The notes: generated from the sequence alone by a model not told the origin. 64,000 nt of DNA from Thermodesulfobacteriota bacterium (GCA_025062045.1 JANXAF010000003.1:41444-105443), one strand, 5' to 3'; numbered from the stretch's first letter, positions 1,455 to 48,690 are shown. Made by a program: numbers and translations.

Positions 1455-1457
1455 ATT

Positions 1458-2963
1458 ATGGATGTTATAGTTGAGACAAAAAGAGGGAGACTAAAAGGAC
1501 AAAAACTTGGTGATCTTTACGTCTTTAAAGGGGTGCCATACGCAGAACCTCCAATAGGGGATCTTCGCTGGATGCCACCAAAAATGAAAGAACCTTACGG
1601 AGACATATGGGATGCTATAGAATACGGTTCCATATGCCCTCAGCCGGAGTTGGAGCTTAAAGGACTAGCAAGTTTCAAAGAAAGACAAAGTGAAGACTGC
1701 CTATACCTCAACATTTATACACCTGGGCTTGACCCAAAAAAGAGACCGGTTATGTTTTTCATACATGGAGGCGCATTTACCGTCGGTTCTTCCTCTCACC
1801 CTTTATACAGAAAAGGAAAGATGGCATTGAGAAATGACATTGTGCTTGTAACGATAAACTACAGACTTGGTCCATTGGGATTTTTAAGACTTAAGGAGAT
1901 TGGAGATGGAAGAATTAATTCCACCGGTAATGAAGGTCTTATGGATCAGATGTGTGCACTTATGTGGGTAAAAGAGAATATTGAGGCCTTTGGAGGGGAT
2001 CCCGATAACATAACACTTTTTGGGGAGTCGGCGGGAGGAATATCCATTTTTTGTCTAATCTCCATGGCGAAAGACATTAACCTTTTCAGACGGATTATAG
2101 TTCAGAGCGCAAATCCCTGCGCAATCTTTGAGAGGGAAAGGGCAAATAGTTACGCGAGAAGTTTGCTCAAAATATTAAACATAGAAGAGAATAAAATCGA
2201 TTTGCTAAAGGATCTTCCTTTTCACAAACTTGTCAAAGCTTCCGAAATACTTAGGGAAAGGATAGGTGAGTTGACAGTCTTTTCCCCAAATGTGGATGGG
2301 GAGTCGATTAAAGAAAAGCCCCTAAGCGTCATAAAGGAAAAGATAAGAGAAATGCCAATCCTTATCGGAACTAACGCAAACGAGTGGAATTTCTTTTGCC
2401 TTACAGATCCAAGGCTCCTAAATATAGATATGGACGAGCTTTATAGGATTTTAGGGAAGTCTTATCAAAAAAAAGGGGTCAAACTGATAATCGACTATTA
2501 CCGTCAAAAGCTTGAAAGAGAAGGGTTAAAACCAGAACCTTGGCGGATCTATTCGCAGTTTATGACTGACAGTTTCTTTTTAATTCCAACCTTAAAAACG
2601 GTCGACATATGGGTCGAGAAGAAAGAACCGGTGTATCTATATTATTTTACTTGGCAATCGCCATATCTTAATGGGATATTGGGTTCATGCCATACGCTAG
2701 AGCTTGGATTTCTTTTTGGGAACTACGATGAGAGATTTTTTGGATCTGGCAGAGAGGCAAAGAGGCTTTCTCAGGTGATGCAAGACGCATGGACCTCCTT
2801 CTCAAAGGATGGAAAGCCTTTTATCCAAAATCTCGGAGCTTGGAGTGATTATGGGCATGAAAAGAAGGTTATGGTTTTAGGAAAGGAATGCTATCTAACT
2901 CAGGATCCGCACAAAGATACGAGAGATTTTTATACTACACTACTTGAGTACTCGATTAAGTGA
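1458..2963 (+). CDS. type-B carboxylesterase (para-nitrobenzyl-esterase-like)
   Basis: 501 aa. Has FIHGGAFTVGS (oxyanion hole), GESAGG (nucleophile elbow) and an N-terminal G.PYA.PP.G.LRW motif. Starts 3 nt after the previous gene. Confidence 0.85.
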   Translation: MDVIVETKRGRLKGQKLGDLYVFKGVPYAEPPIGDLRWMPPKMKEPYGDIWDAIEYGSICPQPELELKGLASFKERQSEDCLYLNIYTPGLDPKKRPVMFFIHGGAFTVGSSSHPLYRKGKMALRNDIVLVTINYRLGPLGFLRLKEIGDGRINSTGNEGLMDQMCALMWVKENIEAFGGDPDNITLFGESAGGISIFCLISMAKDINLFRRIIVQSANPCAIFERERANSYARSLLKILNIEENKIDLLKDLPFHKLVKASEILRERIGELTVFSPNVDGESIKEKPLSVIKEKIREMPILIGTNANEWNFFCLTDPRLLNIDMDELYRILGKSYQKKGVKLIIDYYRQKLEREGLKPEPWRIYSQFMTDSFFLIPTLKTVDIWVEKKEPVYLYYFTWQSPYLNGILGSCHTLELGFLFGNYDERFFGSGREAKRLSQVMQDAWTSFSKDGKPFIQNLGAWSDYGHEKKVMVLGKECYLTQDPHKDTRDFYTTLLEYSIK

Positions 2964-2984
2964 GACTGAAAAAGGGGTGAAGAT

Positions 2985-4946
2985 ATGGCCCATATACTTT
3001 GGGAACCCACAGAGGAGAGAAAAAAGAATGCCAATATCACTAAATTTATAGAGTACGTTAATAGAAAGTACGGAAAAAACTTTAAAACATACGATGAGCT
3101 TTATGGGTGGTCGATTGAAAGTGTTGCAGATTTTTGGGGATCGGTTTGGGAATTCTGCGGGGTAAAAGCTTCAAAAAAATACTCATCTGTAGTTATAGAT
3201 CCTCAAAGCTTTGATAAAGCCAAATGGTTCGTTGGAGCCGAGCTAAATTTTGCAGAAAATCTTTTGAGATGGAGAGATGATCAGATAGCATTCACGTACG
3301 TTAAAGAGGGCCTAACGGGTAAGCGAACCACAACCTATAAGGATCTTTACAAGGAAGTTGCAAAACTTGCTAACGCGTATAAGGAGGAAGGAATAGAAAG
3401 GAAAGATAGGATAGTAGCTTACATACCCAATGTCATTGAAGCCGCAGTCGGCATGCTCGCAGCCTCAACGGTCGGTGCCATTTGGGCTTCCTGTGGACCA
3501 GAGCTCGGGCCAGATGCGGTGATAGATAGATTCAAAGAGTTAGAGCCTAAAATTCTGATTACTGCTGATGCGTACATCTATAAGGGTCAGGCGTACGATC
3601 TCCTAAAAAATGTGGAAATTATAGCCAAAAACATACCCTCTTTAAAAAAGGTAGTGATTGTACGGTATCTAGAAAGATCTCCCAATATAGGTAGCATCTA
3701 TAACGCAATTTTATACGACGAATTCGTAGAAGGCAAAGCAGAAGAGACAGATTTTGAACAGCTTCCCTCTGATCATCCGCACATAATACTTTTCTCATCG
3801 GGTGTCACTGGAAAGCCAAAGTGCATAGTTCACAGCCTTTCTGGTTCTCTCATTGCCCATCTTAAGACCCACATTCTTCATTTTGACATAAAAAGGGACG
3901 ACAAAGTCCTTTTCCTTTCCAGTCCCACATGGATGGTCTGGAACCTAAAAATAAGCTCTCTTGCTACAGGCTGTAACATCGTTCTTTACGATGGAAATCC
4001 CTTCTACCCTGACTTTGACGTTATCTTTAGGCTCATTATGGAGGAAAAGATCACCTGTCTTGGATGTGGTGCGGCATTTATCCTTTCCCTTATGCGGAGT
4101 GGAGTGAGACCAAAAAGTAGGTACGATCTTTCTAGTTTAAAGACTATATTCCAGACCGCAGCTCCTTTGCCTCAAGAAGGATTCGAGTATGTTTATAGCT
4201 CGATTAAGGAGGATGTTTGTCTATTGTCCGGCCTTGGGGGAACTGATGTTCAATGTGGGATTATAGAAGGGAGTCCAATTCAGCCGGTCTACAAAGGGGA
4301 GATGCCCTCCGGAGCTTTAGGATTCGCTGTGAAAGTTTATGATGAAAAGGGAAGACCTGTTCTTGACGAACCAGGAGAGCTTGTTGTGGAAAAACCATTC
4401 CCGTCAACACCCCTCTATTTTTGGGGAGATGACACGAAAAAGAAATACAAAGAAACTTACTTTTCCCTTTTTCCCAATGTGTGGAGACATGGTGATTTTG
4501 CGGTTCAAAAAAGCGAAACCGGAACTTTTATAGGGCTTGGAAGGTCGGATTTTGTTCTTAAACCGAAGGGGGTTAGGATTGGGCCTGCCGAAATCTACAA
4601 TGTGGTTGAAAGGATAGAAGAAATAGAGGATAGTCTAGTTGTGGGGCAGTCTTTCAAGGGAGACCAAAGGATAATCCTTTTTGTAAAGCTAAAAAGAGGA
4701 TACGAATTGACGGACGAATTGAAAGCAAAAATAAAAAATGAACTTAAATTGCGAGCTTCCGCAAGACATGTGCCTGAAATGATACTTGAGGTTCCTGAGA
4801 TCCCCTACACTGTTAACATGAAAAAAGTAGAAAGCGTTGTCCATAACATAGTGAACGGAAGACCCATTACTAATAGACAGACCCTCATAAATCCGGATTG
4901 CCTAGAGTACTACGAAAAACTCTATTTGGAAAAGCTAAAAGAGTAA
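2985..4946 (+). CDS. acetoacetyl-CoA synthetase (acetoacetate-CoA ligase) family adenylate-forming enzyme
   Basis: 653 aa. The N-terminus ILWEPTEERKKNANITKF...YDELYGWSIESVADFWGSVWEF is typical of AACS. Has the AMP-binding motif SSGVTGKPKCIVHS. Confidence 0.75.
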   Translation: MAHILWEPTEERKKNANITKFIEYVNRKYGKNFKTYDELYGWSIESVADFWGSVWEFCGVKASKKYSSVVIDPQSFDKAKWFVGAELNFAENLLRWRDDQIAFTYVKEGLTGKRTTTYKDLYKEVAKLANAYKEEGIERKDRIVAYIPNVIEAAVGMLAASTVGAIWASCGPELGPDAVIDRFKELEPKILITADAYIYKGQAYDLLKNVEIIAKNIPSLKKVVIVRYLERSPNIGSIYNAILYDEFVEGKAEETDFEQLPSDHPHIILFSSGVTGKPKCIVHSLSGSLIAHLKTHILHFDIKRDDKVLFLSSPTWMVWNLKISSLATGCNIVLYDGNPFYPDFDVIFRLIMEEKITCLGCGAAFILSLMRSGVRPKSRYDLSSLKTIFQTAAPLPQEGFEYVYSSIKEDVCLLSGLGGTDVQCGIIEGSPIQPVYKGEMPSGALGFAVKVYDEKGRPVLDEPGELVVEKPFPSTPLYFWGDDTKKKYKETYFSLFPNVWRHGDFAVQKSETGTFIGLGRSDFVLKPKGVRIGPAEIYNVVERIEEIEDSLVVGQSFKGDQRIILFVKLKRGYELTDELKAKIKNELKLRASARHVPEMILEVPEIPYTVNMKKVESVVHNIVNGRPITNRQTLINPDCLEYYEKLYLEKLKE

Positions 4947-5019: not shown

Positions 5020-6078
5020 TTAAATTTTAACTTTTAACAGCCATTCCCTTGTCCTTCCAGTGATTATGAGTTTTTTTTCTTTTAAATCAGCGCACGTCTT
5101 TGAACCGGTAAGAAACATGGCCACTTTTAGCTCAAGAAAAAAATTTTCTAGAAATTCGATAGTTTGCTCCACACCATTTACGGCAGATAGTAGAAGAGGT
5201 CTTGCCATCCCCACCAAATCGGCCCCAAGTGCTATGGCTTTTGCTGCATCAAGCCCTGTTCTTATGCCTCCACTGCCTATTATTGGAATGCCTAAATCTT
5301 TCACTTCAATTATGGAGATGGGCGTTGGGATTCCCCAGAAGGCGAAAGTTTGGCAGAGTCTTTGATACGTTTTATTGTTTCTAAGTTCGGCCCTCTTTTT
5401 TTCTATTAAAGCCATACTTGTGCCACCCTTACCCCCAACGTCTATCGCCGAAACACCTATACTTTTAAGTTTAGCAGCCGTTTCTTTAGAGATTCCCGAA
5501 CCCGTTTCCTTTACGATTACTGGGACAGGAAGAACACTGATAAGTCTTTCAATAGCAGAAAAGCAGCCTTTAGCGAAGGGCTCTCCTTCTATCATAACTG
5601 CTTCCTGTAGGAAGTTGAGATGGACGACAAGGGCATCCGCCTCCATCTTTTCCACGATCCTTTTTATTCTCGCTGGATTTTCAGTCGTTACCTGAACTGC
5701 ACCGATGTTGAGAAATAAAGGTACGTCAGGTGATATAAGCTTCGGGATTCTGTATGTTTTCTCGTACTCGTCTGACTCGAGAAGCGGTCTTAAACTTCCC
5801 GTTTCGAGTCCTATGGAGAAGTGTTTTGCCACGAGAGCTAAGACTCTGTTTATTTCTTCAGCTCCGCTCCAGCCTCCTGTGAGTGCCGAAATTATAAAAG
5901 GGTATTTAAAGTGCCATTTGAGGAACGATACTGAAGGATCAACCTCTCTCAAATCTAATTCAGGAAGGCATTCATGTAAGATCTCTATATCCTCCCAAAC
6001 AGAATGTCTAAATTCCACATCTTCTTTTAGAGCTATCTCTACGTGTTCTGACTTCCTTTCTGACGTATCTTTTGTCAC
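5020..6078 (-). CDS. fni: type-2 (FMN-dependent) isopentenyl-diphosphate delta-isomerase
   Basis: 352 aa. Has RKSEHVEIAL, ISALTGG, VIVKETGSGIS, IDVGGKGGTS and GSGGIRTGLDAAKAIALGA, the hallmark IDI-2 motifs. There is a 4-nt overlap with ubiX. Confidence 0.9.
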   Translation of the reverse strand: MTKDTSERKSEHVEIALKEDVEFRHSVWEDIEILHECLPELDLREVDPSVSFLKWHFKYPFIISALTGGWSGAEEINRVLALVAKHFSIGLETGSLRPLLESDEYEKTYRIPKLISPDVPLFLNIGAVQVTTENPARIKRIVEKMEADALVVHLNFLQEAVMIEGEPFAKGCFSAIERLISVLPVPVIVKETGSGISKETAAKLKSIGVSAIDVGGKGGTSMALIEKKRAELRNNKTYQRLCQTFAFWGIPTPISIIEVKDLGIPIIGSGGIRTGLDAAKAIALGADLVGMARPLLLSAVNGVEQTIEFLENFFLELKVAMFLTGSKTCADLKEKKLIITGRTREWLLKVKI

Positions 6079-6653
6079 CTTTTATGGTTCCCCCATCTTT
6101 CAAAGAGGCGGGCATCTATGCCGAACATATCTAGAACCTTACCAACGGTCTGGTCGATGATGTCCTCTATTGATTTAGGTTTATGGTAGAATGAGGGGAC
6201 AGGAGGCATAATAATTCCACCCATCCGAGTCACCCTGAGCATAAGTCTCAAGTGTCCTTCATGTAGAGGGGTTTCTCTCACAACAAGAACGAGCCTTCTT
6301 CTCTCTTTGAGGGTGACATCTGCGGCCCTGACTAAGAGATTGTGATTGAAGGAGTTAGCTATTGCCGAAAGTGTCTTAATGGTGCATGGTATCACTATCA
6401 TCCCATCCATTATGCATGAACCACTGGCAATCGGGGCTGTAAGATCATCTATATCGTAAACCCTTTGGGCCATGGCTTTTACGTCCTCAAGCTTGAATGG
6501 CGTCTCTATTTCGATGTTTTTTATTCCTGCATCAGTTATGATTAAGTGAACCTCTTGCCCCTTTTTATGGAGGATTTCTAGTGTCCTTATCCCGTATACA
6601 ACCCCGGTTGCACCGGTTATTCCTAGTATAATCTTCTTTTTTTCATGAGCCAT
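6075..6653 (-). CDS. ubiX: flavin prenyltransferase UbiX (prFMN synthase)
   Basis: 192 aa. Has GITGATGVVYGIRTLEIL, IVIPCTIKTLSAIANS and PPVPSFYHKP. Overlaps the upstream UbiD gene by 11 nt. Confidence 0.9.
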   Translation of the reverse strand: MAHEKKKIILGITGATGVVYGIRTLEILHKKGQEVHLIITDAGIKNIEIETPFKLEDVKAMAQRVYDIDDLTAPIASGSCIMDGMIVIPCTIKTLSAIANSFNHNLLVRAADVTLKERRRLVLVVRETPLHEGHLRLMLRVTRMGGIIMPPVPSFYHKPKSIEDIIDQTVGKVLDMFGIDARLFERWGNHKR

Positions 6654-7995
6654 ATTTTTTCACTATACTTTCTACGAGTTCCTTTTCCCCTTTCTTTACA
6701 ACAGCCCTTCCCTCCATTTCCTTCCCGTAAGTTGTAGCATTTATTCCAATTTTCGTTACGCCTCCCATTATTTTTGCCTCAGGATCTATTGGTTGACCCT
6801 GCATAGAAAAAAGCAGGATGAGATCATCTTTGGCAAAACATCTGGTAACAATTGCCCACTCAATCTCCTGCAAATCGTAAGGATCGACATCGCTATCTAC
6901 AATAACAGCTTTTTTTATCATGGGAAAAGAAAGGACGAAGTGTAAAAGGTTATTTATCCTCTTCCTCTCCGTAGGGCTTGTGGTTATGACTATCGATGAG
7001 CCAAAAGTCCTTTCGAGAAAAACGATCTCATGTACAAAGGGAAATAGTCTTTTTACGTTTCCTTCCATGTGGGCCTTACTCACAAATGTAAGGTACATAT
7101 CAGCTTCCAAGCTTGTGGGAAGTAACGCGTGATATATGGGGTCTTTCCTGTACGAAATCCTATTTATATGGACAGTAGGTGTCCTTTCAATCGTCATATA
7201 GTACCCACTTATCTCTCCTAGAGGGCCGTCTTTTTCTTCCTCCTCCAGGTGTATTACCCCTTCAAGTATAAACTCCGTTCCGTACGGCACATCTATATCA
7301 GAGTCGAAGGACCTAATAACTGCTATGCTTTCCCCTCGAAGGGAGCCTGCAACTTCAATTTTGTCCACGTTGTTAGGGATCTTAAGAGCCATAGCCATAA
7401 AAGTTAGAGGATCCACACCAATAGATACGGAAACGGGCATTTTTTTATTCTCGAGCTTGTATTTTTCCTTGATATCGGCAAGGGGAGGGTTGACAAGGGA
7501 GATACCGAACCTATTTTTTCCTCTATACTCCATCCTGTGGATCCCTCGCCCAACGACCTTCGTTTCAGGATCATAGGAGGATACAATAGCTGTAGTTATG
7601 TAAGGCGCCGAATCACTTTCATAGTGTTTCAGAATCGGTATTGTCGTAAGGACATCGTCATTTTCGGTCACATTGATAGATATGTAATCGCCTCTTTCTT
7701 GAACGAAGGTCTTTTTTAAAATCCCAGAACTTCTTTCTACAAAGGCAGAGTAAGGATCATTTTCTCCTGGAAAGAGAAGATTGAAAACCTTCTGCGAGGG
7801 TACAAGGTTAGCAACAACTCGACAATCGTAACCGTCCAAACTTTCAAAAAGTAGGGCTTTGCCAGTCCTCGATAGTCTTTGTATGATTTCTGGCAAAGCC
7901 TCCTTTTTGACCTTATCTCGGATCGAGATAAGAAGGTTTTCTCTTTTTAGCAGATCGAGATACTCACGAAGCGATCGAATAATTCCTTTTTCCAT
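6643..7995 (-). CDS. UbiD-family (prFMN-dependent) decarboxylase/carboxylase, third paralog in the operon
   Basis: 450 aa. Has the UbiD signature GRGIHRMEY and DGPLGEISGYY (compare E.GPFGE.TGYY). Its start overlaps the stop of the 81-aa gene (TGATG). Confidence 0.85.
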   Translation of the reverse strand: MEKGIIRSLREYLDLLKRENLLISIRDKVKKEALPEIIQRLSRTGKALLFESLDGYDCRVVANLVPSQKVFNLLFPGENDPYSAFVERSSGILKKTFVQERGDYISINVTENDDVLTTIPILKHYESDSAPYITTAIVSSYDPETKVVGRGIHRMEYRGKNRFGISLVNPPLADIKEKYKLENKKMPVSVSIGVDPLTFMAMALKIPNNVDKIEVAGSLRGESIAVIRSFDSDIDVPYGTEFILEGVIHLEEEEKDGPLGEISGYYMTIERTPTVHINRISYRKDPIYHALLPTSLEADMYLTFVSKAHMEGNVKRLFPFVHEIVFLERTFGSSIVITTSPTERKRINNLLHFVLSFPMIKKAVIVDSDVDPYDLQEIEWAIVTRCFAKDDLILLFSMQGQPIDPEAKIMGGVTKIGINATTYGKEMEGRAVVKKGEKELVESIVKKYGS

Positions 7996-8240
7996 CAGAA
8001 GGGTTTCACTTCTTCAAGTATCATTACCGAACACGGTTTGTCCACAAGCTGCCCTCTCCCAAGCCTTACCCACAAAGTGTTAGGGTATTTAGCTGGATCT
8101 TTGGATATCCGAAATTTAGCGTATATGCCTTTGTATTTGGTTTTTCCAGGGCTTAGATCTCTTAAAACGCCCGTTATTTCCTCGTCCTCTTTGAGTTCTT
8201 CAAAGTCCTTTGTTATGAAAGTGTCGTAGACTTTACCCAT
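7995..8240 (-). CDS. small (81 aa) protein; candidate small subunit of the UbiD/HAD carboxylase complex (PpcC-like by size and position only)
   Basis: GGAGGG SD 5-6 nt upstream of the ATG. Translationally coupled to the downstream UbiD gene. I recognise no motif in it. Confidence 0.6.
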   Translation of the reverse strand: MGKVYDTFITKDFEELKEDEEITGVLRDLSPGKTKYKGIYAKFRISKDPAKYPNTLWVRLGRGQLVDKPCSVMILEEVKPF

Positions 8241-8249: not shown

Positions 8250-9695
8250 CTAATCTTTGAATCCATAGTCCTTCCAATTTTTTATAACCTTCTCTTGTAC
8301 ATCTTTGGGATAAACTTCTCTGAAGCTTACCTTTGTCGGAAGGAAAGCTTTTGGCCACTCCAAAGGAAAGGTGCAATCAAGCACAACCTTAGGAGACTTC
8401 TGAGAAAAGCGTTCTTCCGGACTAGCAAAGGGGTTAAGTGGGGTTCCGGCACCAAAAGGCATAAGTATTGTTCCCCTTACCGGATGCCACTTGGTGCATA
8501 TGGAATGGATGACTTCTTCTAAGCTGTATATGTCCGTAGTGTCGTCCACAACGACAACAATGTGAAACCAGGCGGCCGCTTTGCTTCCAAGAACGAGGGA
8601 TGCAACCTGTTGAGCTATTCCAGAATAAACAGGCTTTACGCCCACAACTAGAAGGTGATGGGTCGATTCTGGCCACATATAAACACCAGTTATGGGCAGT
8701 CCCTGGCTTTTGAGAAGAAGTTCCATGTCCATCGCGAGTGTGAAAGATCTAAGTAGCTGTCCTTCGTCTACCGGAACTCCCATGTTTGAAACGGTCATAA
8801 TCGCGTTTTTTCTCATTGTAATACATTTGACTCTGTAAACGCACCTTTTGTCCCTTGGGCTCGTTCTATACCCGGTATATTCGCCGAATGGCGCCTCTTC
8901 AAGTCTAGCGTTTGGTAAAACCTCGCCCTCTATCACTATCTCGGCAGTTGCAGGAACGTAAAGATCGTTAGTTTCACACTTGACGAGCTTTACTGGCTCG
9001 CCCATAAGCTGCCCTGTGAATTCCGCCTCAGGCAAAGGAGTAGGAGCTAAACTCGCCAAAGCAGACAAAGGATCGGGCCCAATAACTGTGGCAAAAGGCA
9101 TAGGCTTTCCTTTGGCTTCGTACTTTGTGTAGAAGATCTTCCCCATGTCGGAAAAAGGAAGGACAGGTCCAACCATCGTCTTTTCATCGAATATCATCTG
9201 CCTATACATACCCCAGTTTACAAATCCCGTCTCTTCATCTTTTGCCACAATAAAATGCCAAGTGCCTATGTATCGTCCCCCATCGCCGTCGTGAACCATA
9301 GGGGCAGGCAAATCAAATAGGCTTATATCATCTCCATCCAATATTATCTCTTTGCAAGGAGCATCCTTTTTGTCTACAATCTCGGGCTTATGACAAGGCC
9401 CGGATGTTCTCCTCCTCCACTCGTCCACAATTCCAGATATGGGTGTCTCGGGTGGAAGACCAAGGACTACAGCCAATCTTCTCCATGTCGCAATTGGAGC
9501 TCCGAAGGCAGAAAACCCAGGATAGTCTTTAATCTTGTGAAAATAAGGAGCCGGGCCCTTTTTTTCACAGGTCCTTCGGACTATCGCACCAAGTTCCAAA
9601 TCCCAGTCTACCTCCTCGTGGATGTCGACGAGATCACCCGACTTTCTAAGTGCCTCTACATATTCTCTGTTATCGATAAAATACTTGTAAGCCAT
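8250..9695 (-). CDS. UbiD-family carboxylase subunit (phenylphosphate carboxylase alpha/beta-like)
   Basis: 481 aa. Has NWGMYRQMIFDE and EAPFGEYTGYRT UbiD motifs. Sits in an operon with HAD phosphatase-like genes. Confidence 0.8.
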   Translation of the reverse strand: MAYKYFIDNREYVEALRKSGDLVDIHEEVDWDLELGAIVRRTCEKKGPAPYFHKIKDYPGFSAFGAPIATWRRLAVVLGLPPETPISGIVDEWRRRTSGPCHKPEIVDKKDAPCKEIILDGDDISLFDLPAPMVHDGDGGRYIGTWHFIVAKDEETGFVNWGMYRQMIFDEKTMVGPVLPFSDMGKIFYTKYEAKGKPMPFATVIGPDPLSALASLAPTPLPEAEFTGQLMGEPVKLVKCETNDLYVPATAEIVIEGEVLPNARLEEAPFGEYTGYRTSPRDKRCVYRVKCITMRKNAIMTVSNMGVPVDEGQLLRSFTLAMDMELLLKSQGLPITGVYMWPESTHHLLVVGVKPVYSGIAQQVASLVLGSKAAAWFHIVVVVDDTTDIYSLEEVIHSICTKWHPVRGTILMPFGAGTPLNPFASPEERFSQKSPKVVLDCTFPLEWPKAFLPTKVSFREVYPKDVQEKVIKNWKDYGFKD

Positions 9696-9716: not shown

Positions 9717-10271
9717 TTACAAACTCAAACTGTTTAAAACCTCATCCCATTTTCCCTGTGCCCTAAGTATAAATTCCGCAACCTCCCTTACTACACCTTG
9801 GCCGCCCTTTGCCTCTGTAACCAGATCGGCTATCTCTTTTGCTTCCTTTGAAGCGTCTTGAGGAGCAACGGAGAATCCAGCCCTTCTCATCATTCCAAGG
9901 TCTATCATCTCGTCCCCTATATAACACATCTCTTCATCTCTGAAGCCGTATTTATTTTGCATCTCGGTTGTAAGAGCCATCTTCTGTGAACTTCCCCACA
10001 AAAATTCCTCTGGAACTCCGTAGATCTTTGAGACGGCCTGATCTGCACGGGATATCTTACTTGTGAGGAATGCGGTACGGATTCCCGCTTCATGAAGCAG
10101 CTTAAAACCGATTCTATCCCTTAGAGAGAATCGCTCAGATTTTATACCTTCGGGAGTGTAATATAGGGTGTTGTCGGTTAAGACTCCGTGAATGTCGATG
10201 ACCACGAAAGTGACTTTTTTTGCCTTCTCTATCGCTCCTTCTTTTACTTTTGCATTTTCTCTTAACTTCAT
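9717..10271 (-). CDS. HAD-superfamily KdsC-like phosphatase homolog (phenylphosphate carboxylase delta-like), paralog 2
   Basis: 184 aa. Collinear with KdsC: motif I is DIHGVLTD (KdsC has DVDGVLTD), plus FLTSK, GSSQK and GDEMID. Confidence 0.75.
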   Translation of the reverse strand: MKLRENAKVKEGAIEKAKKVTFVVIDIHGVLTDNTLYYTPEGIKSERFSLRDRIGFKLLHEAGIRTAFLTSKISRADQAVSKIYGVPEEFLWGSSQKMALTTEMQNKYGFRDEEMCYIGDEMIDLGMMRRAGFSVAPQDASKEAKEIADLVTEAKGGQGVVREVAEFILRAQGKWDEVLNSLSL

Positions 10272-10280
10272 AGCGACCCC

Positions 10281-10844
10281 CTATTTGTAACCCATCTTTG
10301 TCACTTTATCGACCCATTCATCCCATATCCCTTTTGCTCTTAAAATGAACTCGCATATTTCTCTCATAGCGCCCCTTCCGCCAGGAACAGATGTTACGTA
10401 GACTGCCAGCTCTTTTACCTCATCTGCCGCGTCACTAGTGGCCACAGGAAATCCAACTTTTTTCATAAAGGGTATGTCGAATAGCTCGTATCCCAAATAA
10501 CCTATCTCTTCGTCCAGAACACCGAATTCCTTCTTTAGTTCTTCCAACTTTGCCATTTTCTCCTTTGGGGTTACCTTGTAATAGTATTTTTCAAGTTTCA
10601 ACTCTTTTGCCCTGTGTAAGCCTTCGTTATCGATTGAAGTGCTATCGAGAAAGATAGGAATAATCCCATTTGCCGAAAGGGAAAGATCACCGAATCCGTC
10701 CATGTGCCAGAAATCGTATCTCCTTTGTCCTTCTTGGTCACAATAGACAGAATCGGTGGTTAGCACACCGTGGATATCGTGGACGAAGACTCTTACCCTT
10801 TTTGCCCTCTCTTCGGCTTCTTTTAGGTTTTTTTCGTGTCTCAT
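10281..10844 (-). CDS. HAD-superfamily KdsC-like homolog, paralog 1, with a degenerate metal-binding motif
   Basis: 187 aa. Motif I is HDIHGVLTTD. Motif IV reads GYELFD instead of GDxxxD. The C-terminal GGRGAMREICEFIL is KdsC-like. Confidence 0.7.
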   Translation of the reverse strand: MRHEKNLKEAEERAKRVRVFVHDIHGVLTTDSVYCDQEGQRRYDFWHMDGFGDLSLSANGIIPIFLDSTSIDNEGLHRAKELKLEKYYYKVTPKEKMAKLEELKKEFGVLDEEIGYLGYELFDIPFMKKVGFPVATSDAADEVKELAVYVTSVPGGRGAMREICEFILRAKGIWDEWVDKVTKMGYK

Positions 10845-10855: not shown

Positions 10856-12283
10856 TTAAATATCACTTAGACCGAGCTCATCCCAACGGGATTTTACATT
10901 CTTTAAAACCTCCTCATTAAGTCTCACTTCCACAGGCTTCTGGGTCCACTCGTAAGGAATCGTTGCATTTATAAGAATACGGGGAGTGATAAACTTGTTA
11001 TCTTCAGGCCCCAATGACGGATCAAGTGGAGTGGACCTCCCCCTCTGTATTATCTGTGTCCCCCGCAGCGGATTATAACGTACCCCCAATGCCCACCACA
11101 CCCTTGGAAGGTCATCGGCCTCAATATCATCATCAACTACTATCACACCCTTCACTCCATACATTCCTGTATTGGAAGCTATGACGGCATGGGCTACCTG
11201 CTCGGCATGACCTGGATACATCTGTCTTACAGAGACGATGACCCAGAATCTGCCCGCCGCCTCGGGAAGAGTGTAGACAGACTGGATCCCGGGTATCTTC
11301 ATGCTTTCAAGCTCAGTCCAAAGGGCGGCATTCCTGGCGAAGGCGTAAAGCATGTGTTGGTCACCAACCGGTCTACCGACTGTAGTTGCAACAAGTATGG
11401 GGTTTGTTCTAAAGTATATCCTCTTAATCTCTATTACAGGTTTGGGAAGGGGCTTGAAGAGTTCTTCAGTGTAATATCCCGTATACTCGCCAAATGGCCC
11501 TTCTTCCTTCATCACACTGGGATCTATCTCCCCTTCTATTGCTATCTCCGCATCTGCAGGAAATGGCAATCCTGTAAGTTCACCTTTAACTAGATTCAGC
11601 GGTTCTCCCCTCAGTGTGCTTACTGCGTCGTACGCGCTTTTGACACCGGGCAAAGTAGCGGCGCTTGCTATCATTAGCAACGGATCCCCCCCCATAACGA
11701 CACATACTGGCATCTTCTTTCTTGCCTTTGCGTATCTTTGAAGTATCCTGTCTGTCGTCTTTCCTTTAAGGATCTGGACGCCTAAGTGTCTTTCGTCATG
11801 GACACCCATCCTAAAGGTACCGAGATTTATTCTGCCAGTTTCTGGATCCTGACTAACCATATAGACGGCAGTTCCAAAATAGCGATGTCCATCCTTTTCG
11901 TAGTATTTGGGGACCGGAAAATCTAGAACACTGGCCTTATCCCCGTCTTTTACATTTTCAAATATCGGCCCCGTTGATACCTCTTTTGACTCAAGTTGTG
12001 CTTTTGGCTGGGTGAGCGTCTTCATCCATTCCCTCGTAAGCTCAACTAAAGAGGCAGTTCCAGGTTTTCCCATTATGTCCGAGAGTCTCCTTACTGTGGC
12101 ATACAATCCAGTTATTACCGGGCTCGAATAGCCCTTTACGTTTTCGAAAAGCAAGGATGGACCGTTTCTTTCTTCAACGAGTTTAGCCACGTGGGAGAGT
12201 TCGAGGTTCCAATCAACAGGAGCCTTTATCCTTCTTAATTGGCCTTCTTTTTCCCATTTCTGGATGAAGTATCTAAGGTCCAT
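10856..12283 (-). CDS. UbiD-family carboxylase subunit (phenylphosphate carboxylase alpha/beta-like), first gene of the operon
   Basis: 475 aa. Has NLGTFRMGVHDE and EGPFGEYTGYYT. A G-rich SD lies upstream. Confidence 0.8.
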   Translation of the reverse strand: MDLRYFIQKWEKEGQLRRIKAPVDWNLELSHVAKLVEERNGPSLLFENVKGYSSPVITGLYATVRRLSDIMGKPGTASLVELTREWMKTLTQPKAQLESKEVSTGPIFENVKDGDKASVLDFPVPKYYEKDGHRYFGTAVYMVSQDPETGRINLGTFRMGVHDERHLGVQILKGKTTDRILQRYAKARKKMPVCVVMGGDPLLMIASAATLPGVKSAYDAVSTLRGEPLNLVKGELTGLPFPADAEIAIEGEIDPSVMKEEGPFGEYTGYYTEELFKPLPKPVIEIKRIYFRTNPILVATTVGRPVGDQHMLYAFARNAALWTELESMKIPGIQSVYTLPEAAGRFWVIVSVRQMYPGHAEQVAHAVIASNTGMYGVKGVIVVDDDIEADDLPRVWWALGVRYNPLRGTQIIQRGRSTPLDPSLGPEDNKFITPRILINATIPYEWTQKPVEVRLNEEVLKNVKSRWDELGLSDI

Positions 12284-12309: not shown

Positions 12310-12347
12310 ATTATCAGTGGAATAACCGTGATTGTCAATTCAGTTAT
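12310..12347. promoter_or_regulatory. divergent promoter/operator region between the UbiD operon and the LysR gene
   Basis: On the minus strand: TTGACA (12338-12333), a 17-nt spacer, GATAAT (12315-12310), about 27 nt before the ATG at 12283. On the plus strand: TTGTCA (12332-12337) and TATATA near 12356. Dyads are TTAT-N7-ATAA (12311-12325, T-N11-A type) and ATAAC-N16-GTTAT (12322-12347). Confidence 0.4.
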
Positions 12348-12371: not shown

Positions 12372-13277
12372 ATGCTCTCTTTCTCCCTCAACTCCCTTCT
12401 CGTCTTCTGCGCTGTCGCAAAATTTGGTAGCTTCTCTAAGGCAGCGGAAGCGCTTTTTATGACACAGCCGGGTGTTTCTAATCACGTAAAGCAGTTGGAA
12501 GCTCAGATAGGAAAAAAGCTCATAGTGAGAGGTAAAAACGGTATACATTTGACGGGTGAGGGAAAAACCGTTTTTAAGTATGCGGAAAGGATCGATAGCC
12601 TCGCAGAAGAACTGGAAAGGTACATAAGGAATGTAAAAAAAGAAGAGAGTGTGGTTTTAAGGATCGCCATAACTACTGTATATTCAAAAGTTTTGATACC
12701 CACGCTCCTAGGTAGCTTTATAAGGAACTACCCTAATGTCACCATAAAGTTGGATCTAGCCAATACCCAAGAGATGTTAGGAAAAGTTTTAAAAGGTGAA
12801 GTTGACTGTGCAATCTTGGCCAATGCTAAAAGATCCAAAAGGATAGAAGTGGTACCACTTGTGCGAGAGGAACTGGTTCTCATTACAGACAAGGCACATC
12901 CGCTCAGTGCGTATGAAACGGTCTCTTTAAAAGAGATCGCAAAATTTCCGCTCATTATGAGGGAGGAAGGATCTGCCACAAGAAAGGTCGTTCTTCAGGC
13001 CTTTGAATCTCTGCGGATCAAACCTTCCATAGTATTCGAGGTAAAAAGTACTGAGTTTATAAAGGAATGGGTGATGGAGGGAAGAGGGATTTCAATTCTC
13101 ATAAATAGAGCCATTTCTGAGGAAGAGAAGAAACACATGAACGTCATAAAGATTGAAGAGCCCCTGTACCTTGAGGTTTCAATAGTTTTTTTAAAATCGA
13201 ATAGGACAAACCACGCAATAGAAAGATTTGTAAACCATATAGAGGAGCTCAAATCGAAATCCCTTCTTTGTTCGTGA
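12372..13277 (+). CDS. LysR-type transcriptional regulator
   Basis: 301 aa. Has an N-terminal wHTH (FCAVAKFGSFSKAAEALFMTQPGVSNHVKQLE) and a C-terminal substrate-binding fold. Divergent from the UbiD operon. Confidence 0.9.
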   Translation: MLSFSLNSLLVFCAVAKFGSFSKAAEALFMTQPGVSNHVKQLEAQIGKKLIVRGKNGIHLTGEGKTVFKYAERIDSLAEELERYIRNVKKEESVVLRIAITTVYSKVLIPTLLGSFIRNYPNVTIKLDLANTQEMLGKVLKGEVDCAILANAKRSKRIEVVPLVREELVLITDKAHPLSAYETVSLKEIAKFPLIMREEGSATRKVVLQAFESLRIKPSIVFEVKSTEFIKEWVMEGRGISILINRAISEEEKKHMNVIKIEEPLYLEVSIVFLKSNRTNHAIERFVNHIEELKSKSLLCS

Positions 13278-13988: not shown

Positions 13989-15842
13989 ATGAGACATACC
14001 ACGAAATTTCCTGACCCACACGAATATTTAAAAGAGATACCAGAAGAACTCTCCGGCTGGGAGGAGATGTACCCGCCCCACTTCCTCTTCGGAAAAGAAA
14101 GAGAGGAGTGGGAAAAAAGACAATTCTGGTATTTGGACAAGATACATGCTCCGAACCCGATGCCACCACTCGATCACATATTCCAGCAAGCTTGGCAGAT
14201 CTCACTCTCCCAGCACACTACAAGAGTTTTCTGTATTCCTCCTGCCCAAGGCGTAGCCCACAGAATAGTTGGGTGCTACCAGTACATCTGTGCAGTTGAG
14301 CCGCCACCTGAGGAAATAGTTGCCGAAAAGGCGGTCTTTTTCAAAGAGAGGGCCCATTACCCTGTTGAGCACTATGATGAACTATGGGATGAGTGGCTGA
14401 AAAGGTTCAGAGCCCTGGGAGAAGAATTACGAAACATTAAGGTACCGGAGCTATTACCGAAGTATCTTTCCCGGGAAGAGGTTTATCCCAACGACTACAG
14501 AGGTTACACTCAGGCGTACGAACTTATAGAAGCCTTCGACAGAATGGTTGACCTTTTGTACAAGGGGTGGCAGTACCACTTCAATCTTTTAAACCTTTGT
14601 TACCTTTACTATCTTATGTTTTATGACCTCGCAAGGAAGCTATTTCCGGGAATAAGCGAAAGTGCGATAGGGAAAATGATAGCAGGAGTTGAGGCTTACA
14701 TGTTTAAACCAGAAGAAGAACTCTGCAGACTCGCAAGGAGAGCCCATGCCGAACCGAAAGTTGCGGAGATACTCAAAAAGGATAAGCCCGCAAAAGAGAA
14801 GATGGAGGAACTCAAGACATTTGAGGTTGGAAGAAGATGGCTCGACGAACTTGAGGACTCAAAGGATCCATGGTTCTATGTGAGCTGCGGAAGTGGGTGG
14901 TACCATTACGAGGGAAGCTGGATAAATAATCTTGATATACCTTTCGGATACTTAAAGAGTTATCTCGAAAGGTTGGATAGGGGAGAAAAGATTGAAAGGT
15001 CACTTAGCGAGATTGCGGAAGCGAGAGAAAAGATTGTGAGCGAGTATAAAAGGCTCATAAAGACTGATGAAGACAGAGAAAGCTTTGAGAGTGCCTACCG
15101 CGATTGTCTAACCTTGTACAGATTCGCCGAAGGCCACATATTCTGGGTTGAGAACTGGCTCCACACAATATGGTTCGAAAAGGCAAGAGAAGTCGGAAGG
15201 GTTCTCGTTAAAGCCGGTGCTCTCAAGCACGAAGATGACATATTCATGTTCAACAGGCTCGAAATCCCGACTCTCATAGAAGACGTATGCACCGCCTGGG
15301 CACTTGGAGAGGGGGTACCCACGCTTAAATGGGCTGAGAAGGCAGAGAAGAGAAGAAAGATACTGGAGGCTGCCGCAAAATGGACACCTTCTCCCGCTTT
15401 AGGAGTACCTCCGAAAGAAGTTGCGGAGCCCTTTACTGTTATGCTCTGGGGTATAACGACTGAAAAGGTCGAAGAGTGGTTAAAAGGTGTGTCAATAAAA
15501 CCGGAAGAGGTGGTGGAGATAAAAGGTTTCGCTTCCTCCAAAGGCCAGGTAGAAGGTCCGGCAAGGGTCGTAAAGACCATAGAGGAGATAGTCACGCTCC
15601 AGGAGGGAGAGATACTAGTTTGTCCGTCAACCAATCCATCTTGGGCTCCTGTCTTTACGAAGATAAAAGCGGCTGTTACGGACATTGGAGGGGTTACATG
15701 CCACGCGGCAATCGTGGCAAGAGAATACGGGCTTCCTTCAGTCACTGGGACTGGAATTGCAACCCAGGTGATAAAGACGGGAGACATAATAAGGGTGGAT
15801 GGAGATACAGGTGTTGTGACAATTATAAAAAGGGCCGCATAA
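13989..15842 (+). CDS. PEP-utilising-enzyme family protein with a C-terminal phospho-histidine swivel domain (phenylphosphate synthase alpha-like)
   Basis: 617 aa. The C-terminus VTDIGGVTCHAAIVAREYGLPSVTG is the mobile-domain His motif. The N-terminus PEELSGWEEMYPPHFLF is typical of PpsA-like proteins. Confidence 0.75.
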   Translation: MRHTTKFPDPHEYLKEIPEELSGWEEMYPPHFLFGKEREEWEKRQFWYLDKIHAPNPMPPLDHIFQQAWQISLSQHTTRVFCIPPAQGVAHRIVGCYQYICAVEPPPEEIVAEKAVFFKERAHYPVEHYDELWDEWLKRFRALGEELRNIKVPELLPKYLSREEVYPNDYRGYTQAYELIEAFDRMVDLLYKGWQYHFNLLNLCYLYYLMFYDLARKLFPGISESAIGKMIAGVEAYMFKPEEELCRLARRAHAEPKVAEILKKDKPAKEKMEELKTFEVGRRWLDELEDSKDPWFYVSCGSGWYHYEGSWINNLDIPFGYLKSYLERLDRGEKIERSLSEIAEAREKIVSEYKRLIKTDEDRESFESAYRDCLTLYRFAEGHIFWVENWLHTIWFEKAREVGRVLVKAGALKHEDDIFMFNRLEIPTLIEDVCTAWALGEGVPTLKWAEKAEKRRKILEAAAKWTPSPALGVPPKEVAEPFTVMLWGITTEKVEEWLKGVSIKPEEVVEIKGFASSKGQVEGPARVVKTIEEIVTLQEGEILVCPSTNPSWAPVFTKIKAAVTDIGGVTCHAAIVAREYGLPSVTGTGIATQVIKTGDIIRVDGDTGVVTIIKRAA

Positions 15843-15845
15843 ATT

Positions 15846-15866
15846 CGGGGGCCTTTTCGGCCCCTG
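15846..15866 (+). promoter_or_regulatory. GC-rich intercistronic stem-loop with no T-tract
   Basis: The sequence is cgggggcc-ttttc-ggcccctg: an 8-bp stem (one G-U) and a 5-nt loop between the two synthase-like genes. No U-run follows, so it is not a classic intrinsic terminator. Confidence 0.5.
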
Positions 15867-15888
15867 TCGTCGATTGGGGGGATCTATT

Positions 15889-16950
15889 ATGGGAAAATTC
15901 ACCAAAGGATTCCATGAGATAAGAAAGGACATGTTCCAAATTTGCGGTGGAAAGGCTTCGCATCTAGGGGAGCTAACAAGTATAGGACTTAATGTTCCGT
16001 ATGGTTTTTGCGTCACCGCGGACGCTTTTTTCCATCATCTTAGAAAAAACAACCTCGAAAAGAGAGTATTTGAGATCGCAAAAACGATAAACTACGACGA
16101 CATATCAGATCTTGATAGAAAAACGGAAGAGATCCGTTCGCTAATTGAAAACGCGGATATGCCAGATGAAATTGCGGATGAAATAGTGGAAGGGTACGAA
16201 AGTTTAGGAAAGGACGAACCTTATGTGGCTGTGCGTTCGTCGGTTGCCATAAAGGATAGTGACATATCCTCATTTCCGGGACTCATGGACACGTACCACT
16301 ACGTAAAAGGAACTCAAGCAATTATGGACTACGTAAAGAAATGTTGGGCTTCGGTTTTTACGTCCAGGGCAACGGCAGCGCGGTATAGAAAAGGGATAGA
16401 ACACGAAAGGGCAATAATCGCGCCTATTATCCAGAGGATGGTAAATGCAAAGTGCGCCGGTGTTATGTTTACATTGAACCCCGTAGATGGAGACGTATCC
16501 AAAATCGTGATAGAAGGTGCTTGGGGAATAGGGGAAGGGGTCGTATCCGGAAATGTGACACCCGACAGATTCGTGATAGACAAAATATTGCTCGAAATTA
16601 ACGAGCGGAAAGTCTCCTTAAAAACGGTGAAGTACGTTTACGACCCGGAACTAAAACGACCATCATACAAGGAAGTACCAGAGGAAGATAAAAGTAGATG
16701 CTGTTTAGAGGAAAAGGAGATAATGGAACTTGTAAGACTCGCAAAACTTATAGAAAACCACTACAAGACTCCCATGGATATAGAGTGGGCTGTGGATAAA
16801 GACTTTGAATTTCCGAAGAACGTTTTTATACTCCAGGCCCGGGCCGAGTCTGTCTGGAGTAAGAAAAAAGCAGAGCCTGTAATAGGTAAAAAGAGTAGTT
16901 ATGAACTCTTGATGGAAAGGGCCATGAAAACTATAAAGGTTGGACAATAA
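15889..16950 (+). CDS. PPDK_N / ATP-grasp nucleotide-binding protein (phenylphosphate synthase beta-like)
   Basis: Has GGKASHLGEL...GLNVPYGFCVT and AVRSSVAIKDSDISSFPGLMDTY (PEP synthase N-domain pattern). I prefer the ATG at 15889 (GGGGGGA SD 6 nt upstream) over the track's TTG at 15874. Confidence 0.75.
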   Translation: MGKFTKGFHEIRKDMFQICGGKASHLGELTSIGLNVPYGFCVTADAFFHHLRKNNLEKRVFEIAKTINYDDISDLDRKTEEIRSLIENADMPDEIADEIVEGYESLGKDEPYVAVRSSVAIKDSDISSFPGLMDTYHYVKGTQAIMDYVKKCWASVFTSRATAARYRKGIEHERAIIAPIIQRMVNAKCAGVMFTLNPVDGDVSKIVIEGAWGIGEGVVSGNVTPDRFVIDKILLEINERKVSLKTVKYVYDPELKRPSYKEVPEEDKSRCCLEEKEIMELVRLAKLIENHYKTPMDIEWAVDKDFEFPKNVFILQARAESVWSKKKAEPVIGKKSSYELLMERAMKTIKVGQ

Positions 16951-18374: not shown

Positions 18375-18386
18375 GGGAGGACTGTT

Positions 18387-21633: not shown

Positions 21634-21642
21634 ATCACCCTC

Positions 21643-21846: not shown

Positions 21847-21861
21847 GTTGTCACCTAATCC

Positions 21862-23547: not shown

Positions 23548-23549
23548 GG

Positions 23550-26452: not shown

Positions 26453-26455
26453 CCT

Positions 26456-33884: not shown

Positions 33885-34547
33885 ATGAAAAAACTGATAA
33901 TCACCATAGATGGCCCGTCGGGAGCTGGGAAAAGCACTGTGGCTAAAATCCTAGCGGAAAAACTGAACTACAAATACATCGACACAGGTGCGATGTTCAG
34001 AGGGGTTGCATATGCGTATAAGCAGAAAGGGAAAGTGGCTAAAATAGAGGATATTTTGAGGGATCTAGGGCTCAATTTCGAGTTCGAAAAAGAAACGAAA
34101 GTTTTTTTTGAAGGGGTGGAACTCAGAGATGAACTTCGGGAACCCGAAATTTCGATGCTCGCATCTAAGCTTTCAAAGAATCCTGCTGTTAGAGAGTACC
34201 TAAAAGAATTGCAAAGAGAGGCTGGGAAAAACGGAGGAATAGTAATAGAAGGGAGAGATACGGGAAGTGTGGTCTTTCCAGATGCGGATCTTAAATTTTT
34301 TCTCGACGCTAATTTGGAGGAGAGGGCTAGACGGAGGTTCTTGGAATTAAAGAGAAAAAAAGATGATGTAGACTTTGAAACTGTAAAGCTAGAGATAGAA
34401 ATAAGGGATAAAGAGGATAGCCAGAGGAAAATAGCTCCCCTTGTTATTCCGCCAGGTGCCTTCTATTTGGATACTACGTATATGACGGTAGAGCAAGTAG
34501 TTGACGAACTTTTAAGAAGGATCCGGATTGATTATGGAGATAGTTAG
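33885..34547 (+). CDS. cmk: cytidylate kinase
   Basis: 220 aa. Has the P-loop IDGPSGAGKST and YIDTGAMFR. Confidence 0.9.
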   Translation: MKKLIITIDGPSGAGKSTVAKILAEKLNYKYIDTGAMFRGVAYAYKQKGKVAKIEDILRDLGLNFEFEKETKVFFEGVELRDELREPEISMLASKLSKNPAVREYLKELQREAGKNGGIVIEGRDTGSVVFPDADLKFFLDANLEERARRRFLELKRKKDDVDFETVKLEIEIRDKEDSQRKIAPLVIPPGAFYLDTTYMTVEQVVDELLRRIRIDYGDS

Positions 34548-35373
34548 GGCAAACAATTCGGGTTTCTGTTTCGGAGTGCGAAGAGCAGTTGACATGGTAT
34601 CCCGATTACTGGAAAAAAAAGAAGGCCCAATCTACACAATCGGTCCCATAATTCACAATCCTGATATGGTTCGGCTTTTAGAGGAGAAAGGGGTTATTCC
34701 TGTAGAAGACGTAAAAGAAGTGGTTCGAGGGACCGTGGTCTTTAGAACTCACGGGATACTTAAAGAGGAGGAAGATTACATAAGGAGCAAAAGAATAAAA
34801 GCTATAGATGCTACCTGCCCTTTTGTGAAGAGAGTAAGAAAGGAAGCTTGCAAGTTGAAAAAGAGCGGATACAAGGTTGTAATAGTCGGAGACAGAGAGC
34901 ACCAAGAAGTCAAAAGTATATTGAGTTACGTAGGGAATGATGGTATTGTAATTGAGCATCCGCAAGAGATAAAGGGCAAAAAGATAGGAATTGTAAGCCA
35001 GACTACACAGAGCCGCGAAGTCCTAAAGAAAGTCGTAGATAGGCTTCTTGAGACTGCGGAAGAGATAAAGGTGGTAAATACAATATGCGAAGCCGTGGAA
35101 AGAAGGCTGAAAGAGGCAATAAGTATAGCCGAAATAGCCGATGTTATGATAGTCGTAGGGGGGAAGGAGAGTTCTAACACAAAAAAACTATTCAAAGCTG
35201 TAAAAAACGTAAGGCCTCGTTCGTACCATGTGGAGAACGAGGAAGATTTAGACCCCCTGTGGTTTAAAGGTGTCCGGGTTGTGGGCCTTACTGGCGGAAC
35301 ATCAACGCCCGATTTTATTATGGACAGGGTCTATTACCGCATAAAAAACGTGTGTGGGGGAAAGGATGGCTGA
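34534..35373 (+). CDS. ispH: 4-hydroxy-3-methylbut-2-enyl diphosphate reductase
   Basis: Has MEIVRANNSGFCFGVRRAV, ATCPFV and NTICEAV, which carry the three cluster cysteines. The ATG at 34534 is preferred over the track's TTG at 34528. Confidence 0.9.
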   Translation: MEIVRANNSGFCFGVRRAVDMVSRLLEKKEGPIYTIGPIIHNPDMVRLLEEKGVIPVEDVKEVVRGTVVFRTHGILKEEEDYIRSKRIKAIDATCPFVKRVRKEACKLKKSGYKVVIVGDREHQEVKSILSYVGNDGIVIEHPQEIKGKKIGIVSQTTQSREVLKKVVDRLLETAEEIKVVNTICEAVERRLKEAISIAEIADVMIVVGGKESSNTKKLFKAVKNVRPRSYHVENEEDLDPLWFKGVRVVGLTGGTSTPDFIMDRVYYRIKNVCGGKDG

Positions 35374-48686: not shown

Positions 48687-48690
48687 CCCC

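Follow-up and report, generated by a model that had tools for sequence, protein, structure and literature searches.

The 64,000-nucleotide stretch of Thermodesulfobacteriota DNA analysed here (referred to throughout as the window; GCA_025062045.1 JANXAF010000003.1:41444-105443) carries on its minus strand, from position 12283 down to 5020, eight tightly packed genes in the order ppcB-ppcD-ppcD-ppcA-ppcC-UbiD3-UbiX-IDI-2 (Table 1). The first five are phenylphosphate carboxylase genes, ppcA and ppcB being firmly assigned and ppcC and the two ppcD-like genes, which encode haloacid dehalogenase (HAD) phosphatases, more tentatively so; the last three, which are the subject of this analysis, encode a UbiD-fold protein (UbiD3), the flavin prenyltransferase UbiX and a type 2 isopentenyl-diphosphate isomerase (IDI-2) that depends on flavin mononucleotide (FMN). 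UbiD3 contains the Pfam domains UbiD_N, UbiD and UbiD_C and matches the generic UbiD model only. The genes at this end of the operon run into one another, with an overlap of 1 nucleotide between ppcC and UbiD3 (TGATG), 11 nucleotides between UbiD3 and UbiX, and 4 nucleotides (GTGA) between UbiX and IDI-2. The open reading frames and family scores agree with a first-pass annotation of this DNA, which had placed a 450-residue UbiD, UbiX and IDI-2 at 5020-7995 with the last two overlaps, and identical gene calls are seen on the contig of origin and on three independent assemblies.

The promoter-like site upstream of ppcB falls in the intergenic region that this gene has in common with a divergent LysR-family regulator, whose position is the same in L001 (assembly GCA_033581755.1) and in the related loci L005 and L006. 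No minus-strand terminator-like site with more than six stem pairs was found within the operon, and no FMN or other riboswitch was found in the operon leader, an Rfam scan of the window returning two tRNAs only. Beyond the regulator lies a phenylphosphate-synthase-like gene pair, which places the operon in phenol catabolism. The tandem PpcD-like pair (9717-10844, minus strand) is kept in nearly all of the 56 related loci described below, both copies scoring below the PpcD equivalog cut-off; Thauera, by comparison, has a single delta subunit.

Table 1. Positions of the operon, of other features of the window and of related genes in other loci, with the profile matches that support them (scores in bits, against model cut-offs).
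Feature	Position	Strand	Support
ppcB, phenylphosphate carboxylase beta subunit (UbiD family)	10856..12283	-	TIGR02724, 621.6 vs cut-off 468.95
ppcD-like HAD phosphatase, copy 1	10281..10844	-	TIGR02726, 103.1 vs equivalog cut-off 281.95 (below); KdsC-like
ppcD-like HAD phosphatase, copy 2	9717..10271	-	TIGR02726, 132.7 vs 281.95 (below); Hydrolase_3
ppcA, phenylphosphate carboxylase alpha subunit (UbiD family)	8250..9695	-	TIGR02723, 646.6 vs cut-off 564.6
ppcC, small gamma subunit	7995..8240	-	PF09662, 48.1 (cut-off 25); TIGR02725, 42 (equivalog cut-off 135.55, below)
UbiD3, UbiD-fold protein, 450 amino acids	6643..7995	-	TIGR00148 (generic UbiD), 267.4 vs 244.85
UbiX flavin prenyltransferase, 192 amino acids	6075..6653	-	TIGR00421, 257.5 vs 108.9
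IDI-2, FMN-dependent isopentenyl-diphosphate isomerase, 352 amino acids, GTG start	5020..6078	-	TIGR02151, 374.6 vs 281.3
Promoter-like site TTGACA-17-GATAAT	12310..12338	-	11/12 consensus matches, best site of the region, just 5' of ppcB
LysR-family regulator, divergent from the operon	12372..13277	+	HTH_1 and LysR_substrate
Phenylphosphate-synthase-like pair	13989..16950	+	phosphoenolpyruvate (PEP)-utilising protein, 617 amino acids (NF006153, 816); PPDK_N protein, 358 amino acids (PEP synthase N-terminal part, 337)
ispH, last enzyme of the methylerythritol phosphate (MEP) pathway	34528..35373	+	TIGR00216, 270.1 vs 187.85; usual cmk-ispH-rpsA arrangement
RibK directly downstream of UbiX	L089-L128, e.g. 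L091 5627-5992, L092 12052-12417		PF01982
Ligand-less UbiD genes in other clusters	L007 8529-9905; L009 15469-16836 (-); L129 9998-11305 and 11890-13269; L146 6620-8023; L148 554-1915		
UPF0261 genes	L006 8478-9716; L005 ~11080-12270; L129 7056-8282; upstream regions of L092, L100, L112, L117, L123		

The last gene of the operon is, by its sequence, a member of the type 2 isopentenyl-diphosphate isomerase family, with a predicted activity of converting isopentenyl diphosphate (IPP) into dimethylallyl diphosphate (DMAPP). Its closest match among solved structures is the IDI-2 of S. shibatae (PDB 2zru, E 2e-69), and it is 41-48% identical to archaeal and Chloroflexota IDI-2 proteins. The motifs HLNxxQE, KETG, GGxGGT and GGIRxG form invariant columns in an alignment of 27 sequences that includes it. 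Also retained are R8-K9, S95 and R97, which together with HLNxxQE and KETG make up the conserved motifs of diphosphate-using enzymes and which we take to be the substrate-binding residues of the S. shibatae structure. All conserved motifs are likewise common to the housekeeping IDI-2 proteins of archaea, Chloroflexota and Firmicutes; what distinguishes the window gene from these is its position inside a catabolic operon, coupled to ubiX, in an organism with ispH. The presence of ispH in the window, asserted in the first-pass annotation, is confirmed, the start at 34534 given there being an in-frame ATG. The GC content of the IDI-2 gene (0.42, against 0.42-0.47 for its neighbours) and its slightly low GC content at third codon positions (0.38) are uninformative on a recent transfer.

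The enzyme that would use the product of IDI-2 is UbiX, and 15 UbiX/Pad1 sequences in the PDB match the window UbiX at E <1e-35, the top match being A. niger PAD1 (E 4.5e-58). The phosphate-site residues E127 (in RETP) and Y156 (in SFY) align with E162 and Y191 of the A. niger enzyme (AnUbiX). UbiX had been said at the outset to require a dimethylallyl monophosphate (DMAP) donor, which is not always the case: the UbiX enzymes of A. niger and E. coli K-12 are specific for DMAPP, that of E. coli O157 takes both DMAPP and DMAP, and that of P. aeruginosa is specific for DMAP, its Phe181 blocking the beta-phosphate (Marshall et al., PMC6541611). The position equivalent to Phe181 is occupied by His164 in the O157 enzyme and by Gln203 in the DMAPP-specific fungal enzyme, where this residue hydrogen-bonds the DMAPP beta-phosphate (PMC6541611). 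Gln168 of the window UbiX aligns with Gln203, within a near-identical SIEDxIDQ(S/T)VG motif that it has in common with the DMAPP-specific A. niger PadA1/UbiX and S. cerevisiae Pad1, and a phosphatase may therefore be unnecessary. A Gln is present at this position in all 46 of the ppc-type UbiX sequences (46/46) and a His in the other IDI-2-linked ones, and Phe is found only in the Archaeoglobus and Aquifex reference structures, in none of the ppc-type or IDI-2-linked enzymes. The window UbiX thus probably takes DMAPP directly. Since the Gln, His or Phe residue is by itself insufficient to fix specificity (PMC6541611), direct use of DMAPP is plausible, short of proof; in contrast to the fungal enzymes, the window UbiX is bacterial and from an anaerobe, and its specificity is a prediction from sequence.

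The association of IDI-2 with UbiX extends beyond this operon type. A profile scan of species-representative genomes for IDI-2 gave 80 listed loci, mostly archaeal and Chloroflexota, of which three (L009, L013 and L020), all bacterial, place UbiX no more than 10 kb from IDI-2; this holds for none of the archaeal loci listed, so that a UbiX link is no general property of IDI-2. In the Dehalococcoidia locus (L009), IDI-2 and UbiX overlap by 4 nucleotides and head a ppc-like cluster. Of its three UbiD genes two are Ppc-like, and it also contains a HAD gene and genes resembling those of 4-hydroxybenzoyl-CoA reductase. The other two loci are from Actinomycetota, with an adjoining UbiD gene in L013 and none detected in L020. 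Two further clusters (L007 and L146), composed of genes for ParA-like ATPases, several UbiD-like genes and small genes, end in a UbiD-IDI-2-RibK-(split-barrel flavoprotein)-UbiX cassette, where RibK denotes a small riboflavin kinase; L007 adds a HAD gene and ribBA, and L151 holds the same cassette. A stand-alone set of five genes (L148, 133-4209) consists of RibK, a UbiD lacking the metal ligands discussed below, IDI-2, UbiX and a split-barrel (PNPOx-like) protein, with no carboxylase subunits on the 7 kb downstream and with the contig ending just upstream. By sequence, the split-barrel proteins of these cassettes do not significantly match any protein of solved structure, and this includes PhdC. 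In L145, a 544-residue IDI-2::RibK fusion (319-1953) is followed 2 nucleotides later by UbiX (1955-2545), and the predicted makers of both UbiX substrates would thus be joined in one polypeptide.

In a neighbour-joining (simple distance) tree, the window IDI-2 groups in a bacterial clade. Context is known for 12 members of this clade, and 9 of them are linked to UbiX; the three exceptions are Chloroflexota genes with housekeeping surroundings. The Actinomycetota pair (L013 and L020) and a group of four loci (L129-132) represent IDI-2 lineages separate from this clade, which indicates that the linkage of IDI-2 and UbiX arose at least three times. In all, UbiX-linked IDI-2 spans the window, its two nearest relatives and unrelated UbiD-carboxylase clusters of Dehalococcoidia, Actinomycetota and uncultured lineages, and UbiX is absent from the neighbourhood of the housekeeping homologues, both in the archaeal loci listed and in the three Chloroflexota loci. 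In the openly accessible literature, we found no work that ties UbiX clusters to either IDI-2 or riboflavin kinase.

Scanning metagenomes with the UbiD3 clade as seed yielded 56 loci, in which context is readable as far as each contig extends. Essentially all of them contain, as far as their contigs reach, the order ppcB-ppcD-ppcD-ppcA-ppcC-UbiD3-UbiX, and by this recurrence UbiD3 and UbiX are fixed parts of this operon type. The gene 3' of UbiX, on the other hand, varies. In about 31 loci it encodes a protein of the CTP-dependent (archaeal-type) riboflavin kinase family (PF01982, RibK), with no IDI-2 in that slot; the window lineage has IDI-2 there and no RibK, a tblastn search of the window for RibK giving no match at E 1e-5 or better. 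The two nearest IDI-2 homologues (64% and 59% identical; L005 and L006) belong to the same operon, with the same gene order and with genes overlapping or abutting; the genes downstream differ from those of the window despite the shared trio. In L129-132, UbiX is followed by a fourth UbiD-like gene, then by a RibK::HAD fusion and finally by IDI-2, the last scoring above the equivalog cut-off and being only about 34% identical to the window IDI-2. The expected adjacency of the isomerase gene (fni) and ubiX in relatives is accordingly found in the two nearest ones and in unrelated clusters, but not in most operon relatives, the roughly 31 loci having RibK instead. The designation of the window genes as a 'self-contained' module was an overstatement, as the window is without the riboflavin kinase and split-barrel flavoprotein of the fuller versions.

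Between L129-L132 and the window, PpcA and PpcB are 75-84% identical, UbiD3 47-49% and UbiX 54-56%. The accessory 3' part of the operon seems, from these comparisons, to evolve or be exchanged faster than the catalytic core. A gene of the UPF0261 family (Tm-1-like, putative ATP-binding) recurs at varying positions in the related loci, lies directly 3' of IDI-2 in L005 (fragmentary) and L006, and is absent from the window.

UbiD3 itself departs from characterised members of its family. Its clade is named HmfF-like in the automatic annotation of the Joint Genome Institute (JGI), and its nearest solved relative is HmfF, the 2,5-furandicarboxylate decarboxylase (PDB 6h6v; E 6e-47, identity about 25-27%), with which it agrees in size, in fold and in an IHR motif. 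An AlphaFold model of UbiD3 (pLDDT 84.6) superposes on HmfF with a TM score of 0.87, and the fold is therefore complete. In Fdc1 of A. niger, the Mn2+ ion that anchors the phosphate of prenylated FMN (prFMN) is bound by N168, H191 and E233, and R173, E277 and E282 surround the cofactor (PMC4947166). By alignment, the positions of the three ligands are occupied in UbiD3 by G149, P170/P171 and K212, all three being thus replaced, and the Arg/Asp/Glu network is kept as R154, D256 and E261. Where UbiD3 has Gly, Pro-Pro and Lys, the Asn, His and Glu ligands are retained in HmfF, VdcC and the UbiD of E. coli, and the Asn and Glu in PpcA. The replacement of the ligands is common to all of 240 database homologues (240/240) drawn from two sub-branches, and the Arg and second Glu of the network are also present in every one of the 240 (240/240). 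The first-pass description of the third UbiD as a shorter, divergent paralogue holds as far as its 450 residues go but understates the case: judged by its residue pattern, the UbiD3 type is a large, strongly conserved subfamily without canonical metal ligands, and no decaying paralogue.

The same ligand replacements occur in the UbiD gene adjoining IDI-2, RibK or UbiX in L007, L009, L129, L146 and L148, and in every cluster listed in Table 1 the ligand-less UbiD genes adjoin at least one of these three; the position of the UbiD3 gene thus tracks the cofactor genes and not the catalytic subunits. The most likely role of UbiD3 is to receive, mature or deliver prFMN on behalf of PpcA and PpcB, and it would not be a free-standing decarboxylase; Lys212 could possibly stand in for the metal. 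No description of a ligand-less UbiD subfamily was found in the accessible literature.

Taken with the gene order, these features make it likely that this phenol-type phenylphosphate carboxylase operon ends, at its 3' side, in a supply cassette that provides prFMN to UbiD-family carboxylase subunits. When the operon is induced, two abundant UbiD-family subunits would need to be loaded with prFMN. IspH, at the end of the MEP pathway, releases mostly IPP. IDI-2, translationally coupled to ubiX, would turn part of this IPP into DMAPP, and the dimethylallyl pool would rise just when the operon is induced; UbiX would then join DMAPP and reduced FMN to form prFMNH2, which UbiD3 may pass on or mature. 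In sister lineages, RibK would raise the level of FMN, the other UbiX substrate, instead of or alongside IDI-2. The sequences directly show which genes these are, how they are coupled, the contexts in which they recur, the fusion and the residue patterns; the flow of substrates, the use of DMAPP by the window UbiX and the role of UbiD3 we infer. The essence of the scheme (IDI-2 as a dedicated dimethylallyl supplier for prFMN) had been put forward in the first-pass annotation and is strongly backed by gene context, namely its recurrence, the occurrence in at least three lineages, the lack of UbiX near IDI-2 in the archaeal loci listed and the IDI-2::RibK fusion, and is further supported by the presence of ispH.

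Some considerations weigh against the supply cassette. In most of its relatives the operon does without a neighbouring IDI-2, which makes this gene an optional add-on and no requirement. Non-essential IDI genes are common in MEP bacteria, so that the presence of IDI-2 alone is unremarkable. Finally, the role proposed for UbiD3 derives solely from residue patterns and gene position.

An ordinary housekeeping isomerase at the end of the operon, balancing IPP and DMAPP for quinones and undecaprenyl phosphate with no tie to prFMN, would fit the commonness and dispensability of IDI genes in MEP bacteria, the absence of IDI-2 after UbiX from about 31 related operons, and the close Chloroflexota homologues in housekeeping contexts without UbiX. 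Translational coupling to the final gene of a catabolic operon flanked by a LysR regulator would, however, be unexpected for such a gene, which would also leave the pairing with UbiX in at least three IDI-2 lineages from several phyla, as well as the riboflavin kinase fusion beside UbiX, without a reason, a pairing that is seen in none of the archaeal IDI-2 loci listed; we regard this explanation as unlikely. Still less can be said for UbiD3, UbiX and IDI-2 as a fragment of the archaeal-type modified mevalonate pathway that serves isoprenoid synthesis. This pathway, following Hayakawa et al. in 2018, reportedly uses a UbiD-family anhydromevalonate-phosphate decarboxylase, UbiX and IDI-2, and the identity of the window IDI-2 to archaeal and Chloroflexota proteins and an acetoacetate-CoA ligase next door (2985-4946) could be read in its favor. 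We have nevertheless rejected it as highly improbable, because genes for mevalonate kinase, phosphomevalonate dehydratase, isopentenyl-phosphate kinase and HMG-CoA enzymes are all lacking among the annotated open reading frames of the 64-kb window, because UbiD3 is embedded between ppcC and UbiX across essentially all 56 loci, and because the archaeal loci listed have no UbiD-like gene closer than 10 kb to IDI-2; in addition, ispH is present, and the JGI name of the UbiD3 clade is not that of a mevalonate-pathway decarboxylase.

IDI-2 might also serve prFMN by another chemistry, either isomerising isopentenyl monophosphate to DMAP after the action of a HAD phosphatase or acting mainly as a reduced-FMN-binding partner of UbiX. 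HAD phosphatases do recur in these settings (the RibK::HAD fusion of L129-132, the HAD gene overlapping UbiX in L007, the tandem ppcD pair of the window), and IDI-2 and UbiX both require reduced FMN; yet IDI-2 scores above its equivalog cut-off and keeps the motifs of diphosphate-using enzymes, the window UbiX carries Gln as DMAPP-using enzymes do, and operons without IDI-2 have the tandem ppcD pair as well; together these points leave little room for this chemistry. A serious rival, concerning the role of UbiD3 only, is that this protein catalyses decarboxylation or carboxylation (an ATP-independent 4-hydroxybenzoate decarboxylase/phenol carboxylase being one example) or forms a third structural subunit of the carboxylase complex. 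Extra UbiD- and UbiX-like genes of phenol clusters have long been read as hydroxybenzoate decarboxylases. The full UbiD fold and the invariance of the Arg and second Glu of the network would suit a catalyst, and a naphthalene carboxylase has been reported from a cluster with four UbiD-like genes (PMC12016498). In characterised UbiD enzymes the prFMN phosphate is held by way of three Mn2+ ligands, and the replacement of every one of these in UbiD3 argues against catalysis, as does the company of the ligand-less type, which sits with UbiX, IDI-2 and RibK and not with catalytic subunits in varied clusters and in the stand-alone set of L148. On balance, a catalytic or structural UbiD3 is a real but somewhat doubtful prospect.

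Read as a prFMN supply cassette, the 3' end of the operon resembles the UbiX-UbiD systems with the LpdD chaperone or the PhdC maturase, in which UbiX stands beside its UbiD client and additional operon genes help to deliver active cofactor (PMC10865409, PMC13040415). It would differ from these in that the additional genes are proposed to work at an earlier point, providing the substrates (DMAPP through IDI-2 and, in relatives, FMN through RibK). The phenol clusters of Thauera aromatica, Aromatoleum and Desulfatiglans anilini encode, near phenylphosphate synthase genes, alpha and beta subunits that are UbiD-like, a small gamma subunit and a delta subunit of the HAD type, and that of D. anilini includes a phenol-induced ubiX-like gene (PMC7500099). 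The window has counterparts of all these, putative ones in the case of gamma and delta. Compared with these clusters, the window type has two delta-like paralogues, a conserved third UbiD without metal ligands and a terminal IDI-2; no mention of IDI-2 or RibK was found in the accessible papers on clusters of this kind.

How prFMN is supplied and oxidatively matured without oxygen, in obligate anaerobes, is an open question of the field, and many of the genes adjoining ubiD and ubiX lack an explanation (PMC10865409). The prFMN-dependent UbiD enzymes catalyse hard reactions, including the anaerobic carboxylation of phenol and probably of benzene and naphthalene, and are sought as biocatalysts, but their heterologous activation often fails. 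IDI-2 and the archaeal-type riboflavin kinase are clonable candidates for built-in suppliers of both UbiX substrates, and the ligand-less UbiD-fold subfamily, a constant companion of UbiX in these clusters, is a further candidate; if the proposal is correct, co-expression of the cassette could raise the yield of holo-enzyme for difficult UbiD carboxylases. A broader and clearly more tentative suggestion is that strict anaerobes carboxylating phenol, and probably benzene and naphthalene, might carry a modular, exchangeable prFMN cassette made up of UbiX, IDI-2, RibK, the split-barrel flavoprotein and the UbiD-fold protein without an Mn2+ site, the last of these loading the catalytic UbiD subunits as an O2-independent maturase or chaperone for prFMN.

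Further genes were noted elsewhere in the window. Between the LysR gene and the phenylphosphate-synthase-like pair, a 194-residue multi-pass membrane protein (13393-13977, plus strand), kept in L001 and L005, has a weak, sub-threshold resemblance to GPR1/FUN34/YaaH channels and may be a candidate for a phenol-related transporter. Convergent with the end of the operon (708-4946, plus strand) are genes for an alpha/beta hydrolase, a carboxylesterase-type protein and the acetoacetate-CoA ligase, a trio that is syntenic in L005 and partly present in L006. The region 3' of the synthase genes (17040-27484) encodes a PaaK-like CoA ligase (possibly a 4-hydroxybenzoate-CoA ligase), a molybdopterin oxidoreductase, a flavoprotein resembling AprA/SdhA and, under a GntR-type regulator, a TAXI-TRAP transporter; positions 41485-51550 hold a second TAXI-TRAP set together with a second flavoprotein. 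A bifunctional fructose-1,6-bisphosphate aldolase/phosphatase, an enzyme more typical of archaea and deep-branching bacteria, is encoded at 29224-30333 (plus strand; NF041126, 552 bits).

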